The notes under the pieces were generated by a model. It was not told where the DNA came from, searched no databases, and was given only the letters and a program-made list of their open reading frames with translations. From a virus, in the IMG/VR virus record IMGVR_UViG_3300045988_131044, positions 19,100 to 83,099 of that record: a DNA stretch of 64,000 bases; one strand, written 5' to 3'. Position 1 is the stretch's first letter; every line of letters starts with the position of its first letter. Below are positions 19,082 through 34,520 of this stretch, in pieces. Made by a program: the position numbers and the translations under genes.

Positions 19082-19735
19082 ATGTTGTCAATTATTGCTA
19101 TCTTGCAAACAAAAATCATGAGACGAAGATTTCAAATAGGGATGGGGGTAAATCCCTCGCTTATAATCAATAAAGGCATATACATCCAACATGTAGATGG
19201 AGGATTATATACAAAAGAAAATTGGTCTAATAAAGGATATTCCAATGATCTATGCAATGGAATAGCTCTTGTAGATAAAGTGTGTTTTGTTATAGCCACC
19301 GAATATATTGGCACATCTCGTTGGGGTAAGGATGGACAAATAGACAATATATTTGCACAAGATAGTTCTCATATTGGAACTATTAAAAAGGATTATTGGG
19401 GGCGTGAAAATCAGAATGCGTATCTTGAATATGATACCAGTAATACAGATTACGCTTTTAATAAAGCTAATAGCTATTTATTTAAGAATGGTCAAAATGG
19501 ATATGTAGGTGGCGCCGGAGAGTTTTTTTTGATATCATTGTATGCTAATGAAATAAACGAATGCCTTTTAATGGTAGGAGGTACGATAATGAGTAATAGA
19601 ATGTGGACATCCACTCGAAATGAAAAATCTACCTATTCGTGGTATTATGATATAAACATCCAAGGAGATCATTTGGATACAGGTTCAAGGGGTAGTTCAC
19701 GTTATGTCCGTCCTTTTACTGAATTAATTTTATGA
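19082..19735 (+). CDS. DUF1566 (Lcl C-terminal)-like domain protein, possible fibre/receptor-binding protein
   Basis: C-terminal MWTSTRNEKSTYSWYYDI...SRYVRPF resembles DUF1566; start uncertain (19082, 19118 or 19142). Confidence 0.45.
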   Translation: MLSIIAILQTKIMRRRFQIGMGVNPSLIINKGIYIQHVDGGLYTKENWSNKGYSNDLCNGIALVDKVCFVIATEYIGTSRWGKDGQIDNIFAQDSSHIGTIKKDYWGRENQNAYLEYDTSNTDYAFNKANSYLFKNGQNGYVGGAGEFFLISLYANEINECLLMVGGTIMSNRMWTSTRNEKSTYSWYYDINIQGDHLDTGSRGSSRYVRPFTELIL

Positions 19736-29073: not shown

Positions 29074-29243
29074 TGGACTCCCTTTAAGTAGTTAAACCAT
29101 ATATCCTCCAGCTTCTCCTGAAGTTCAAATGCCTTCTTGAAATTCCCGCATCTTACAGCAACATCTCTCATGTATTCTACGTTTATAACTTCCGGATCTT
29201 GCCGGTATTTTGTTCTTAACTTTTGAACGTCCTCGTATTTCAT
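29070..29243 (-). CDS. hypothetical small protein (57 aa, below ORF-track cutoff)
   Basis: ATGA overlaps with both neighbours. Confidence 0.3.
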   Translation of the reverse strand: MKYEDVQKLRTKYRQDPEVINVEYMRDVAVRCGNFKKAFELQEKLEDIWFNYLKGVQ

Positions 29244-30259
29244 CGTTTTATCTTTTTAGACGGATCCCAATCCGAAGAGAAAGGGCATTCGTTTTTGTTA
29301 TGTAATCCAAAGTCACAATAATAACACAGTGCTGACGGGCAGGGTAGTTTGTTTTGCGTAACAGGCTGGCTTAGGGTGGCACGCCGCTTGCCATACCTGG
29401 CTCCTTCTGCTCCCTGGATGTACGCTTGAAATGATTTTACACTATTATCTTCAAAATCATACATTTTAGATAAAGTGTCATTTAGCATCTCTATAGATTT
29501 TGTTTTACGTTCTTCATCTACCTTAACCTTTTGATACTGCCTGGTCCTGGTAAAGAAATAGATGTTCATATCTGGTAGAACCCCACCGTATTTTCTATAG
29601 ATGTAAAACGAATATATAGGATGCTGTAAATTTGTTTCCAATTTCTTAGAGTCAAAAACCTTATTTCCTGATTTCCAATCTATGACATAATGGTGAACTA
29701 CGTTCTTGCTTTTTATAGCCAGATGAAGGTCTACCGATCCTACTATGTACACATGAGTATGAACGGTCCCATTTATATCAACAGGCTTAGGAAGACGGTA
29801 TGGTAGCACAAAATCTTCTTCGACTCCAACTATAGCGCCGTGTCTGATAAGTTTCTCACAGGGATTAAGATCACTATCAGCTATCATAAACCTATTGCCG
29901 TCTTTTTTAAATAGATCCACAATCCAAGCAAGAAGCTCCCCGGATTGCTTCATGGCTATCATCATATTTTCCGGTGATTGCCAAGGTATGTCTTCTTGGT
30001 AAGCATAGTAACTTATAGCTTCTCCAAGGTCTTTACCAGAAGGCTGTTTTCCGTTCTTGAAGAAGTATTCCAGTGTCTTATGAATAACCGTACCATAAGA
30101 CGTAGCTTCTTGTTTTTCCGTAGATCTTTTGCCCTCCACGTAAGTTTTATACCATTTCATTGGACAAGTAAGAAACGTATCTATCTGGGAATAAGATATG
30201 GCAAGACGTTTCACACCATTAAACTCCTTATATAGCAAATGCGTTTCCGGGACCATCAT
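29240..30259 (-). CDS. Cas4-like / RecB-family PD-(D/E)XK nuclease with C-terminal Cys cluster
   Basis: VIDWKSG (DYKTG-like) motif; C-x4-C-x2-C-x9-C at C-terminus. Confidence 0.55.
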   Translation of the reverse strand: MMVPETHLLYKEFNGVKRLAISYSQIDTFLTCPMKWYKTYVEGKRSTEKQEATSYGTVIHKTLEYFFKNGKQPSGKDLGEAISYYAYQEDIPWQSPENMMIAMKQSGELLAWIVDLFKKDGNRFMIADSDLNPCEKLIRHGAIVGVEEDFVLPYRLPKPVDINGTVHTHVYIVGSVDLHLAIKSKNVVHHYVIDWKSGNKVFDSKKLETNLQHPIYSFYIYRKYGGVLPDMNIYFFTRTRQYQKVKVDEERKTKSIEMLNDTLSKMYDFEDNSVKSFQAYIQGAEGARYGKRRATLSQPVTQNKLPCPSALCYYCDFGLHNKNECPFSSDWDPSKKIKR

Positions 30260-30603: not shown

Positions 30604-30639
30604 ATCTCATATTCTATTAAATATATTTAAAGCTATTCA

Positions 30640-30960
30640 TATGTTTTAATACATCCCCTCGGAGACCTTCCGGTCTCCGAGGTAGATGTAAATCCCGTTA
30701 GGGATAAGTCAGGATTTCTCCTGTAAGTACCCATCGCCAATGTTATAAGAGGTTTTATATAATGGCAACACTGTTTCGTCAAATACACTACTCCTGTTTA
30801 ATCACCATCCTTAGAGCAAGAAACTTGGATAAACATTCCTTGGTAACTATTTATTCTCAAATAACGTAGCCTCTGTTTCAAGGCTTAGGCTAATAACCCG
30901 ATCTCTGAAAGAGATGTATTAAACTTTTATAATAGAATTATATTGGGTTAATACTATTTG
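30640..30960 (-). ncRNA. orphan omegaRNA-like structured RNA / IscB-element left-end copy without nuclease gene; ends in GC hairpin cctcggagacc-GGAA-ggtctccgagg (30657..30682)
   Basis: ~75% nt identity to 8425..8690 in inverse orientation; two stems differ by compensatory changes. Confidence 0.55.
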
Positions 30961-31142
30961 GGGTTATAACACCGATCATAATGCTTGGTCAGTTCTTCTG
31001 GTTCTAAATCTTGTCCAAAATCCATGTTAAAAATATCGTAATTAGTAAAGCACTTAAAATCACTGTCCCTGCCGGCAGGAAATCTATGAATGCTGCTTTT
31101 GCTTCTTCAATTAGGCCCAAGTGTAACCTTGGGCCATTGTAT

Positions 31143-32843
31143 TTATTTTTTGTCATCTCCTTTTAACTTCTTTAAAGTATCTGCAATCGGAAGCTGATCA
31201 ATGACTCCCAATGCCGGAGCGACGGTCTTAACAACATTGTTAAGAAAATTACCGGTACTGTTCTGACCGCCGTCAAATACCGTGATATTTCCGAGGTTAA
31301 TGTGCTCAAATGCCTTAACCTGTTCTCCGGCAATTTCTTTCCACTGATTAACCATCTTGTACTGGATGGCGATCTGAGGATTGGATTCTGCTGCTTCCAC
31401 CATAGCCTTAAATCCGTCGGCTTCTGCCATCAACGACTTTTTCTTACCTTCGGCTTCTGCCTCCAGCTTCATCTGAATAGCTTTTGCTTCCGCTTCTGCT
31501 TTTGCCAAATGTGCTGCTGCTTCGGCATCAGCCCGGCGTTTGATCTTCTCAGCTTCAGCATCAGCTTGCAACATAGCCTCCTGCTTCTGAATTTCAGCCG
31601 GCACAATCTTTTCAGCTTTAAGCGCAGCTTGAACCTTCTTAGCTTTAGCTTCTTCCACTTCTTTATCAGCAAGCTCTTTTGCCGTTTTCACAGCCGCTTC
31701 CGATTTAACTCTCTCTTCTCCGGCTTTCTTTTCTGATTGAGCTTTGATAACCTGTAGCTCTGATTCTGATACAGCAACCTCTTTCTGAGCATTGTTGTAG
31801 CCTACAGAAGCATTTTTCTCAGCCTCAGCTTTCTTAATCTGAGCTTCAGAGTCTTGTATTGCTATAGCTGCTTGTTTATCAGCTTCAGCTTTATTCTTCC
31901 CGACTTCTTCCATTCTTTCGGCTTCAGCTTTGTTTACTTCAAGTTCTGCCTTAGATCTTGCGATCGCTGATTCCTTATCAGCCAAAGTCTTTGCAATAAC
32001 CGCAGCCCTATCTCTATCGGCTTGAGCTACACCGATCTGTTTTTCTTTATCGGTTAAAGCCAAAGCTACTTCTTTTTCTTTCTTTGTTTCAGCTACTACC
32101 GTTTCCTTTTCTTTTTCAGTACAAGCAATTTGAATCTCTTGTTCTTTTTTGGTATTAGCTACAGCCGTTTCTTTTTCCTTTTGCTGTACAGCAATCTTAA
32201 TAGCACCCAGCTTTTCCTGTTCTTCGATATTAGCCTGTGCTTCGTTCAGGGCCTTACTTTCAGCTTCTTTGCCAAGATTCATGATATAGCCGGCTTCGTC
32301 TCTGATGTCACTGATGTTGATATTTAGGAGGTAAAGGCCTAACTTATTAAGTTCGTTATCAATGTTTTTTCTTGCCTTATCCAAAAACTCATCCCTGTCA
32401 GAATTAAGTTTTTCAATCGTCATTTCAGCAATGATCAAACGCATTTGGCCATAAACGATATCCGTAATAAGATTTTCAGTAGATTCAGTATCCATCCCCA
32501 AAAGCCTTTCTGCTGCATTCTGCATAATTTCAGGATTTGTGCTGATTGCTACTGTAATAGTAGTAGGTACATCCACTCTGATATTTTGAGACGACAAAGC
32601 ACCGGTGAGCCTACAATCTATTTGCATAGGCTCCATAGACAAAATATCATAGCTTTGAATAATAGGCAAGACGAATGCCGCTCCACCATGATATAATTTC
32701 GCCGATTTCTTTTCCCCACCTGTCTTACCATAAACGACCAAGACTTGATTAGGTTTACATCTACGATACCTTGATAAGACTCCGATGATTGTCAAAATAA
32801 TCACTACAGCTAAAATAGCTGACACGTACATGATTGTTGTCAT
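31143..32843 (-). CDS. flotillin / SPFH (band-7) family protein (YqiK-like)
   Basis: N-terminal TM, SPFH-like domain, long EA/K-rich coiled coil. Confidence 0.8.
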   Translation of the reverse strand: MTTIMYVSAILAVVIILTIIGVLSRYRRCKPNQVLVVYGKTGGEKKSAKLYHGGAAFVLPIIQSYDILSMEPMQIDCRLTGALSSQNIRVDVPTTITVAISTNPEIMQNAAERLLGMDTESTENLITDIVYGQMRLIIAEMTIEKLNSDRDEFLDKARKNIDNELNKLGLYLLNINISDIRDEAGYIMNLGKEAESKALNEAQANIEEQEKLGAIKIAVQQKEKETAVANTKKEQEIQIACTEKEKETVVAETKKEKEVALALTDKEKQIGVAQADRDRAAVIAKTLADKESAIARSKAELEVNKAEAERMEEVGKNKAEADKQAAIAIQDSEAQIKKAEAEKNASVGYNNAQKEVAVSESELQVIKAQSEKKAGEERVKSEAAVKTAKELADKEVEEAKAKKVQAALKAEKIVPAEIQKQEAMLQADAEAEKIKRRADAEAAAHLAKAEAEAKAIQMKLEAEAEGKKKSLMAEADGFKAMVEAAESNPQIAIQYKMVNQWKEIAGEQVKAFEHINLGNITVFDGGQNSTGNFLNNVVKTVAPALGVIDQLPIADTLKKLKGDDKK

Positions 32844-32874
32844 AACTTTTAAAATTTAATTGTTGATAAAAAAA

Positions 32875-33369
32875 TTAGATACTTAATTCTCCTTCTTCGT
32901 ATTTTATATTCACCTTGTCACCGTTTTTGTAATTTTTTCCAGACAAGCACCTCACTCTCATCTGTTCCTGTCTTCCATTTTTCGAAATATTTACCATATA
33001 ATGATTCTTACCTGATCTAAATACTATCTCCACCTCTCTGCCATTTAAATCTTCCGGACATTCGTACACCATTTCTTGTTTTAACTTAAGAAGTAATTTA
33101 TATACGTAAAACAAAACGATAAAGAAAAACGACCCTATCACAACCCCTACTAAATGAGAACCCGAAAAGTAGGTAGTCCAGCTATATCCAAGAATAAAAT
33201 GTGTTATGCCCTTGAATGATATGATGTCCGACAAAGACATGCTTAAATCAGAAGCACTGTCAATGTCAATATCCGTATCCAGATCAGATCCTAATATCGA
33301 CAACAAAAACTGTATAACAAAAGCAAATGACGCTATTAAAGCCATGCATAAAATTATGTCACTTCCCAT
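32875..33369 (-). CDS. NfeD-like membrane protein (YqiJ-like partner of flotillin)
   Basis: multi-TM N-terminus + C-terminal beta-rich soluble domain; sits immediately upstream of flotillin as in bacterial yqiJK operons. Confidence 0.6.
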   Translation of the reverse strand: MGSDIILCMALIASFAFVIQFLLSILGSDLDTDIDIDSASDLSMSLSDIISFKGITHFILGYSWTTYFSGSHLVGVVIGSFFFIVLFYVYKLLLKLKQEMVYECPEDLNGREVEIVFRSGKNHYMVNISKNGRQEQMRVRCLSGKNYKNGDKVNIKYEEGELSI

Positions 33370-33610
33370 ACCCTTCTGTTATTATTTTGTAAACAAGATC
33401 AGTCATATCTTTGATGGTCTCCATATCATAATCAATAATAACAATATTGAATTTTTGTTCCACCATCACATCAAGCTCAATTCGATCAATAGAGTCTAAT
33501 CCAAGTTCTTTAAACGTCACATCTTCTTCATGAACTATATCTATTTCCGAATTAAGAAACTGAGTAATAATTATATCCTCTATTATCTTTCTGATTCTTA
33601 CTTTTTCCAT
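33359..33610 (-). CDS. acpP: acyl carrier protein
   Basis: LGLDSIDRIEL phosphopantetheine-attachment motif; 83 aa acidic. Confidence 0.7.
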   Translation of the reverse strand: MEKVRIRKIIEDIIITQFLNSEIDIVHEEDVTFKELGLDSIDRIELDVMVEQKFNIVIIDYDMETIKDMTDLVYKIITEGYGK

Positions 33611-34311
33611 TGCTTTCTAATTTTGTTAAATAAATACGTTTTTATGTTTTTCAATCGCTCTTTGTCTGTTTCAGAACTTCCGGTAAACAAATAATCCGGA
33701 TTGCCTTTAGCCGGCGGCGTAGGCAATTTAGATACGGCAAACAACCAATCCATTTCCTTATTCTTCTTAGACTCCAAATAAGGCTCGGTAGCGATCTTAA
33801 ATTTTTCAGCTATTAAGTCAAAGAGCTTTGAATTTTTAAGGTTCATATGAACTGAAAAAGCCTGAGAAGGCGGTTTCCATATGAAGTTACATAAGCTCAT
33901 TGTATAATCTCCTGACTCTGCTATATAAGATTCCGTTACCTGAAGTATGACCTCTTTCTTGAATGAGGTGTTACCCATAAACCAACACAATCTGGATTCC
34001 GCTTCTTTTCTGCTGACACCTATGTCTTTTGAATATGATTCGTACATTCCTATCATAATCTTCAACGTTTCCAGAACCTCGTCCGTCATTTCCGGTGTCT
34101 CTATATAATTCACAAAAGACGTTCCTTTGTTGGTTAATCTCATCACGCCTGATTTTAATTTCTCAACCAGGCCAAGCTCTATATATCTTCCAGCGTCTTC
34201 TTCCGGTATGGCTTCGATCATAACCGCATCCTTCTGTCTTATGGCAAGAAGATTAGCGAGATCATTAGGAGTCATGTCTGATGCTGTAAGTTGTCTGAAA
34301 TTGATGTACAT
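33598..34311 (-). CDS. hypothetical protein (237 aa), first gene of ACP-NfeD-flotillin operon
   Basis: ATG ORF overlapping ACP start. Confidence 0.5.
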   Translation of the reverse strand: MYINFRQLTASDMTPNDLANLLAIRQKDAVMIEAIPEEDAGRYIELGLVEKLKSGVMRLTNKGTSFVNYIETPEMTDEVLETLKIMIGMYESYSKDIGVSRKEAESRLCWFMGNTSFKKEVILQVTESYIAESGDYTMSLCNFIWKPPSQAFSVHMNLKNSKLFDLIAEKFKIATEPYLESKKNKEMDWLFAVSKLPTPPAKGNPDYLFTGSSETDKERLKNIKTYLFNKIRKQWKK

Positions 34312-34313
34312 TC

Positions 34314-34520
34314 CTAATCAGCTTTAATGAAAATAACATCTCTATTATCCTCCCTCTCCGCGTGATTACACGGACCTGCAACCACACCCACTGCCCCGCA
34401 TGTAAAGTAATTAAATATACATCCTTCACATCCTGCATCTGGCGCCGTAGGTTCCACACATTTTAATCTCACAAGTCCGGCAACAAATACTTCTCCTACT
34501 TTAAATTCCTTCTTTTCCAT
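34314..34520 (-). CDS. small Cys-rich protein (68 aa)
   Basis: AAGGAGGG SD 5 nt before ATG. Confidence 0.45.
   Translation of the reverse strand: MEKKEFKVGEVFVAGLVRLKCVEPTAPDAGCEGCIFNYFTCGAVGVVAGPCNHAEREDNRDVIFIKAD

Follow-up and report, generated by a model that had tools for sequence, protein, structure and literature searches.

We analyzed a window of 64,000 nt, comprising positions 19,100 to 83,099 of the IMG/VR virus record IMGVR_UViG_3300045988_131044, in which a compact block of minus-strand genes encodes a flotillin, a small membrane protein directly upstream of it, and an acyl carrier protein (ACP). The window derives from an epsilon crAss-like phage of the Epsilonunovirus type. The region shares 95% nucleotide identity with OR575929, the 151-kb genome of the human gut phage 'csAssE-Sib' (crAssE-Sib), which was assigned to the epsilon crAss-like group and the proposed genus Epsilonunovirus (PMC11054128). 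GenBank and Table S1 of that report already carry the labels 'flotillin family protein' and 'acyl carrier protein', and for the 164-aa gene preceding the flotillin gene they give 'transmembrane protein' (GenBank) and 'hypothetical protein' (Table S1); the main text is silent on all three genes (PMC11054128). No paper joining 'crAss-like' with 'flotillin' was found in the searchable literature. What the locus holds is a phage-borne gene pair of a known operon type, previously auto-annotated yet unanalyzed, and not a new kind of system.

The open reading frame (ORF) check of the window placed four minus-strand ORFs exactly where a preliminary description of this DNA had put them, namely those of a 237-aa protein (p237), the ACP, the 164-aa protein, and the flotillin. 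A fifth ORF of the block, tm50, had been overlooked (Table 1). The successive junctions from p237 to tm50 measured -13, -11, +31, and -14 nt, the last being the overlap of tm50 with the flotillin stop codon. The genes are thus tightly packed. The block belongs to a longer array of co-directional minus-strand genes, which spans approximately 20.7 kb to the window end, and is no stand-alone operon of four genes. The block is encoded by the phage, within its replication region, as had been described, and the layout indicates that transcription of the flotillin and its partner runs in the same direction as that of the replication genes and is tightly coupled to it. Near the cassette, no Bacteroidota-type -33/-7 promoter motif was detected, sigma-70-like matches were in modest excess (30, compared to 21.4 with a standard deviation of 3.8 in shuffled sequences), and terminator-like matches were at expectation (6, compared to 5.1). 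A dedicated cassette promoter was not found.

The assignment of the 566-aa product to the flotillins (SPFH family) was borne out by two Pfam domains scoring above their gathering thresholds, Band_7 (PF01145; 89.9 bits against 23.6, E = 2.7e-25) at aa 30–211 and Flot (PF15975; 38.3 bits against 27, E = 1.6e-9) at aa 450–559. Hydropathy placed an N-terminal hydrophobic anchor at aa 1–28, and the stretch of about aa 212–449 was composed of 22% A, 17% E, and 16% K. This stretch was called a coiled coil from its composition and from an 11-aa indel periodicity, and it contains a tandem repeat of 1.9 copies with 80% matches. The flotillin homologs were 410–597 aa long, and their length differences were in-frame indels confined to aa ~200–470 (window positions 31497–32210). 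The most common indel was 11 aa, which accounted for 13 of the 49 indels and occurred at no fewer than six positions; indels of 22, 33, and 99 aa were also found. These results suggest that the coiled coil forms a helical wall with hendecad periodicity that tolerates changes in its length. Against NF058507, the NCBIfam equivalog model for Bacillus subtilis FloT, the protein scored 146.3 bits with a cut-off of 700, indicating that it shares the FloT superfamily without being a FloT equivalog. PHROGs contains no family for the crAss flotillin, and full-length flotillins were found in only two of 50,697 GenBank phage records, those of crAssE-Sib and Vibrio phage KIT04, in line with the earlier remark that such a gene is unusual in phages. 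Within IMG/VR the gene was common, with identical synteny in at least 165 contigs in a pattern-limited scan that returned only close relatives of this phage.

The 164-aa protein encoded directly upstream had been described as NfeD-like. It did not match the hidden Markov models (HMMs) of NfeD and YqiJ (PF01957, PF21001, and PF07290) in Pfam at E <= 10 or in NCBIfam. An exhaustive profile search showed that it is a member of a genuine family of small proteins, with 420 representatives at E <= 1e-3; PF01957 was matched by only 2 of 74 sampled members, with a best E value of 6e-5, and the family profile reached YuaF in the PDB at E = 0.29. An hhalign comparison of the family with a Planctomycetia partner protein aligned the C-terminal domain alone, with a probability of 1.7%, and was discarded as unusable evidence. 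The 164-aa protein is predicted to fold into three transmembrane (TM) helices with an acidic D-x-D loop and to have a beta domain of the OB-fold type at its C-terminus. Hinderhofer et al. (PMC2636767) defined NfeD2 proteins, such as YuaF and YqiJ, by three hydrophobic stretches and an all-beta domain and by a gene position upstream of an SPFH2 flotillin, and reported a very low identity of ~21% between NfeD2 and canonical NfeD. The prediction, in which a short linker joins three hydrophobic helices at the N-terminus to a soluble, all-beta OB domain, corresponds to this architecture, and the gene lies directly upstream of the flotillin gene with a gap of 31 nt. The same pairing of partner and flotillin was observed in Phocaeicola and in a Planctomycetia metagenome-assembled genome. 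Because of its fold, its context, and the published definition of NfeD2, the protein was classified as NfeD2-like, outside Pfam NfeD, although the sequence HMMs fail. The earlier label therefore stands for the predicted fold and the flotillin-partner context but not at the HMM check, and the comparison with yqiJK-type pairs holds, the 164-aa protein being a flotillin partner of the yuaF/yqiJ type. One database homolog, P0030, joins the N-terminus of an NfeD-like protein to an Alu-like human sequence and is probably an assembly artifact.

The downstream ORF tm50 has counterparts at the same position in two other sublineages, L091 (50 aa) and L092 (52 aa), with 34% identity and a conserved C-terminal TM segment. 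It was weakly constrained (dN/dS 0.18–0.83), the common deletion described below removes it along with the flotillin gene, and no tm50-like ORF follows the bacterial flotillin gene of locus L090. By these comparisons, tm50 is a phage-specific addition to a captured pair, and the actual module consists of the NfeD-like gene, the flotillin gene, and tm50.

All close homologs of the flotillin sat on phage-genome-sized contigs. The most distant flotillin in the top list, P0158 (L090 7001–8980), lay in a chromosomal neighborhood of pgi, gpsA, lysS, and aroC and was directly preceded by a gene for a 165-aa protein without a Pfam domain; the flanking lysyl-tRNA synthetase and chorismate synthase were identical to Phocaeicola (P. 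massiliensis) proteins. This pair was reached by a metagenome protein search and a context look-up, and a single-sequence scan of species-representative genomes yielded only a Planctomycetia flotillin with 33% identity. The bacterial 165-aa protein and the phage 164-aa protein shared 39% identity over their full length (E = 1e-39), and the identities over aligned columns between L090 and the phage were 66% for the flotillin and 42% for the partner. The GC content was 0.39 for the cassette, 0.37 for the phage, and 0.43 for the L090 host locus, and the L090 operon contained no ACP gene. Since both genes are homologous to an adjacent Phocaeicola pair and the GC content of the cassette is near that of the phage, it is highly probable, by an estimate made jointly for the identity and the origin of the pair, that partner and flotillin were captured together, and not recently, from a Bacteroidaceae-type host. 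The preliminary description had left room for a host-DNA insert in a prophage; three phage sublineages (the window, L091, and L092) share the cassette in the same gene order on phage-genome-sized contigs, and it is ultimately host-derived though phage-encoded. P0158 also carries an exact internal duplication of ~115 aa, probably an assembly artifact. Three contigs with this region, L150 (IMG/VR, 253 kb), L148 (173 kb), and the P0067 contig (239 kb), are longer than the 151-kb genome; they could have arisen by concatenation, misassembly, or integration, a point relevant to lysogeny in Epsilonunovirus.

Between phage sublineages, dN/dS was 0.035–0.065 for the flotillin and 0.03 for the NfeD-like protein, and 0.015–0.04 and 0.047 for the comparison genes encoding DnaB and the nuclease, respectively; within the population, pN/pS of the flotillin was 0.058. 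These values point to strong purifying selection on the pair, with a constraint like that on DnaB and the nuclease. To follow gene presence, 72 evaluable viral contigs were chosen via p237 and were therefore unbiased as to the flotillin; most of them were drawn from a single IMG/VR dataset and cannot count as independent samples, which limits all frequencies given here. The flotillin gene was carried by 55 of the 72 loci, 15 retained the NfeD-like gene without flotillin and tm50, and 2 had larger deletions. The 17 losses of the flotillin gene involved at least five different junctions, the common one (32871->31032) and those of L167, L094, L110, and L137, and three of the five deletion classes left the NfeD-like gene intact. 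The L110 deletion joined the N-terminus of the NfeD-like protein to the C-terminus of the flotillin, and fusions of this type explain the odd 'homologs' P0027 and P0031. The module is thus constrained yet dispensable, with repeated independent loss in the phage population. pN/pS of the NfeD-like gene was 0.113 in flotillin-less genomes (nine haplotypes, no stops) and 0.116 in flotillin-bearing ones, although much of this polymorphism may predate the deletion or stem from recombination.

Three independent CAG-to-TAG changes were found in the flotillin gene at codons 490, 500, and 527 (window positions ~31374, 31344, and 31263), in loci L046/L108, L047/L111, L020, L159, and L118, and remove the last 40–77 residues. 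Under a uniform distribution over the codons that a single transition turns into a stop, all three changes would lie at codon 490 or beyond with a probability of ~0.01. These alleles are probably C-terminal truncations. Recoding of TAG to Gln was unsupported, as TAG read-through gave the late genes of the window no meaningful extension; no amber suppressor was found among the four of six crAssE-Sib tRNAs examined, and the anticodon of tRNA-Gln was TTG.

Table 1. Positions of the cassette genes and of nearby features in the window
Feature	Position	Strand	Basis or remark
p237, 237 aa	33598-34311	-	winged-helix core gene, left flank of cargo slot
ACP-like gene, 83 aa	33359-33610	-	PP-binding, PHROG 5934
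NfeD2-like flotillin partner, 164 aa	32875-33369	-	predicted fold and gene context
Flotillin (SPFH2 / YqiK-FloT type), 566 aa	31143-32843	-	Pfam Band_7, Flot
66-bp (22-aa) tandem repeat within flotillin coiled coil	32071-32195	not applicable	TRF
tm50, tail-anchored small membrane ORF, 50 aa	31004-31156	-	same position in L091, L092
HEARO (IsrB-type omega) RNA	30723-30967	-	Rfam RF02033
361-bp polymorphic insertion	30605-30965	-	with orphan HEARO RNA
PD-(D/E)XK exonuclease	29240-30259	-	PF12705 1.3e-20; right flank of cargo slot

In the replication module, p237 and the PD-(D/E)XK exonuclease, both conserved, flank a cargo slot that is hypervariable. The slot was empty in L173, where the stop of the p237 homolog overlaps the nuclease start, and held two unrelated small genes in L172. 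In L084/L085 it contained an ACP gene, a Dcm-type methylase gene, two small ORFs, and two unclassified radical S-adenosylmethionine (radical-SAM) genes whose weak similarity to MoaA and viperin stays far below the cut-offs, and in the window, L091, and L092 it contained the ACP, NfeD-like, flotillin, and tm50 genes. These divergent states were obtained from genomic-context look-ups of p237 homologs; a scan of viral contigs with a p237 alignment gave only near-identical loci among the 80 retained. The p237 product carries a MarR-like winged helix for DNA binding at its N-terminus, and its C-terminal domain is helical; p237 is a conserved core gene that forms the left flank of the slot and is not part of the flotillin module. 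A role of p237 as a phosphopantetheinyl transferase (PPTase) or another ACP-modifying enzyme was rejected, because it has the winged helix and no enzyme fold. Between p200 and p237 lies a Cys-rich 68-aa ORF (34314–34520) with a median identity of 62% and a minimum of 52% among 79 related loci, in which the flanking p200 and p237 are 98–100% identical; this pattern points to allelic replacement or a hypervariable gene.

The ACP, which had been recognized by its canonical DSI site, scored 28.0 bits with PP-binding (PF00550), whose gathering threshold is 20.8, and also matched PHROG 5934 ('acyl carrier protein') at 1.4e-8; its motif is LGLDSID and its pI is 4.35. It scored 28.6 bits against the 70.45 required by TIGR00517 (AcpP) and lay far below the cut-offs of the other ACP equivalogs in NCBIfam. 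The phosphopantetheine Ser was invariant in the motif-covering variants from flotillin-bearing lineages (~60 distinct sequences) and was replaced by Asp (LGFDDLD) in the ACP of the flotillin-less sister lineage examined (L084 6675–6938 and L085 6675–6938). ACP identity between the window and L092 was 37%, compared to 76–83% for the neighboring genes, and its dN/dS of 0.2–0.46 indicates an evolution several times faster than that of the partner/flotillin pair. The ACP gene was present without a flotillin gene in L084 and intact in the 15 loci missing only flotillin and tm50, and ACP truncations and a nonsense allele were found in genomes still carrying the flotillin gene. Its 11-nt overlap with the NfeD-like gene was conserved, including in the 83% lineage. 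Following distant p237 homologs (L083 and L086) or in the L172 slot, no PP-binding match was detected. Among the 206 features annotated for the closest relative there is no PPTase, acyltransferase, or ligase, which would leave the ACP dependent on the host AcpS. The idea that the four genes form one unit was therefore abandoned: p237 abuts the nuclease in the empty slot, the ACP is separable, and the donor operon lacks it. The ACP is orphan slot cargo that neighbors the flotillin module and cannot be shown to belong to it.

In the 400-bp spacer that follows tm50, a full-length HEARO RNA lies within a 361-bp insertion; it matched RF02033 over model positions 1–211 of 211 with 95.2 bits (gathering threshold 83, E = 4e-19). 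No IsrB or HNH ORF adjoined the RNA, and a perfect 10-bp hairpin lies just downstream of it at ~30660–30690. The insertion was absent from crAssE-Sib and present in 21 of the 72 related loci, partially in one of them, and it occurred as two variants with ~99% and ~90% sequence identity; at the empty site, 30966 is joined to 30604. The element looks like a non-autonomous, MITE-like (miniature inverted-repeat transposable element) derivative of an IS200/605-type element. The independent flotillin deletions of L094, L110, and L137 stop exactly at its 5′ boundary (~30968), two of them also removing the NfeD-like gene, as is expected if the end of a mobile element seeds adjacent deletions. Related epsilon crAss-like contigs carried TnpB (OrfB_IS605 / Cas12f-like) insertions (L085 1592–2812, L092 14180–15034, and L172 1–687), and the DEAD/ResIII helicase genes of L085, L086, and L172 had been invaded by inteins or homing endonucleases (Hint, LAGLIDADG). 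Selfish elements have colonized these genomes heavily.

As for the function of the module, we tentatively favor membrane homeostasis or scaffolding during infection, a reading that we regard as plausible but short of probable. It was drawn by analogy with the FloA-NfeD clamp of Staphylococcus aureus and from general properties of SPFH proteins. The S. aureus clamp stabilizes unfolded membrane proteins independently of ATP (Ukleja et al. 2024, PMC11222466), and NfeD binds and stabilizes the flotillin oligomer there (PMC11222466). During infection, the phage flotillin would enter the host inner membrane by its N-terminal hydrophobic segment, the long EA-rich coiled coil would drive its oligomerization into an SPFH-type cage or clamp, and the OB domain of the NfeD-like protein would stabilize the oligomer. 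The assembly would serve as a host-like membrane-homeostasis or scaffolding factor that stabilizes membrane proteins and microdomains without ATP, and the infected Bacteroidaceae cell would thereby retain a working envelope and energy supply through a prolonged productive or carrier-state infection. Such a module would resemble an auxiliary gene that stands in for a host function after the shut-off of host expression; the ACP and p237 would be dispensable to it. Its benefit would be conditional, which would account for the presence/absence polymorphism. Several points weigh against this proposal. The flotillin is missing from about one quarter of the genomes, and the host already has its own flotillin pair, leaving the benefit of a second copy unexplained. 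The S. aureus precedent is a FloA-type SPFH5 protein of a Gram-positive bacterium and not an SPFH2 protein of Bacteroidota (PMC11222466), and NfeD membership of the partner fails at the HMM level. Furthermore, the methylase and radical-SAM genes in the slot of the sister lineage point equally to phage-phage or phage-host conflict.

This last point leads to the strongest of the competing explanations, which we nevertheless consider unlikely: that the module is a superinfection-exclusion or anti-defense device, which would remodel the inner membrane so as to keep out the DNA of competing phages, or would blunt a membrane-acting host defense. The placement in a hypervariable accessory slot, which in a sister lineage is occupied by two radical-SAM enzymes and a Dcm-type methylase, the presence/absence polymorphism with recurrent independent loss, the additional phage-specific small membrane protein, and the length polymorphism of the coiled coil would all suit such conflict cargo. 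However, the very strong purifying selection and near-identical sequences are unlike those of typical arms-race genes, the module plainly copies a housekeeping-type host operon, and the PADLOC protein models gave no match for the flotillin, NfeD-like protein, ACP, or tm50 (p237 had a weak LmuC match at E = 0.0096). A separate and more doubtful reading makes the NfeD-like protein the key effector, which would dock on flotillin assemblies, including those of the host, and let the phage take over or rebuild the flotillin microdomains of the host as a dedicated membrane platform for phage replication or assembly. It fits with the intact NfeD-like gene and its unchanged purifying selection in flotillin-less genomes, with the three deletion classes out of five that spare this gene, and with flotillin nonsense alleles that all clip the C-terminal tail only.

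We consider it improbable that ACP, NfeD-like protein, and flotillin, with or without p237, work as one unit in which the ACP feeds acyl groups to the remodeling of microdomain lipids or lipoproteins. The conserved overlap of the ACP stop with the NfeD-like start and the Ser that is invariant in flotillin-bearing lineages but replaced in the flotillin-less one argue for such a coupling, whereas the faster evolution of the ACP, its occurrence apart from the flotillin in L084 and the 15 loci, its broken alleles in genomes that retain the flotillin gene, a donor operon without it, the lack of cognate enzymes among the 206 features, and the DNA-binding nature of p237 argue against it. Equally improbable in our estimation is that the SPFH assembly cages or modulates the host FtsH protease, like HflK/C in lambda, and thereby stabilizes regulators of the phage and biases a lysis, carrier-state, or lysogeny decision. 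The SPFH1, 3, and 4 families are functionally tied to FtsH (PMC2636767), and Epsilonunoviruses, with a repressor and anti-repressors, are suspected to be temperate or plasmid-like (PMC11054128); yet the protein is an SPFH2 flotillin and not HflK/C, it has no sequence link to FtsH, and its gene lies in the replication module and not in a regulatory one. That the block is host DNA from an assembly chimera or a prophage flank would accord with its clearly bacterial-type genes and the chromosomal location of the nearest non-phage homologs, but is effectively refuted by the identical synteny in the IMG/VR contigs and in a complete GenBank genome, the retention of the cassette in three diverged sublineages, its modest identity to the nearest host pair found, a GC content unlike that of the host, and start and stop codons that overlap those of flanking phage genes.

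The function of bacterial flotillins is still debated, and to our knowledge nothing is known about flotillins in Bacteroidota. A very abundant group of human gut phages carries its own flotillin and partner, and coexisting natural knockouts, namely clean deletions, partner-only genomes, and C-terminal truncations, constitute a natural experiment on the role of the flotillin in infection. If the favored scaffolding function is correct, the module provides an example of a crAss-like phage taking up a membrane-organizing function of its host. The analysis also defines a hypervariable cargo slot in the epsilon crAss-like replication module and corrects the annotation, the 'hypothetical' or 'transmembrane' protein being an NfeD2-like partner, the ACP cargo, and the 237-aa protein a core gene product.

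Compared with known systems, the phage pair is closest in organization to yuaF-yuaG [floT] of B. subtilis and yqiJ-yqiK of Escherichia coli, in which a three-TM OB-fold partner is likewise encoded directly upstream of a flotillin of ~500–570 aa. The flotillins of these operons share with that of the phage the N-terminal anchor, the SPFH domain, the EA-rich coiled coil, and the Flot C-terminal domain, and their partners, like the phage partner, show almost no sequence similarity to canonical NfeD. The phage pair differs from them in sitting in the replication module of a virulent-type crAss-like genome, in having a 50-aa membrane ORF that overlaps the flotillin stop, and in its divergence, with 146 bits against the 700 of FloT and a partner that matches neither PF01957 nor PF21001. 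The Phocaeicola pair of L090, whose lineage is likely both the donor lineage and the host clade, has homologous adjacent genes in the same order, but unlike the phage pair it has a chromosomal housekeeping setting, no upstream ACP, no downstream tm50, and a higher GC content. FloA-NfeD of S. aureus is also an operon pair of flotillin and NfeD and supplies a mechanistic model that has been tested, although its flotillin is short, of the SPFH5 type, and from a Gram-positive bacterium. The window ACP resembles the phage ACPs of PHROG 5934 in its small size, its acidic character, its PP-binding domain with the DSx serine, and its moron/auxiliary class, and differs in having no cognate enzymes nearby, a very fast sequence turnover, and the Ser-to-Asp change in a sister lineage. 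The other full-length phage flotillin, that of the T5-like Vibrio phage KIT04 (LC487410, Demerecviridae), is preceded by an 82-aa ORF with no recognizable NfeD features, and its identity of 28% to the window flotillin, in an unrelated phage family, indicates an independent acquisition.

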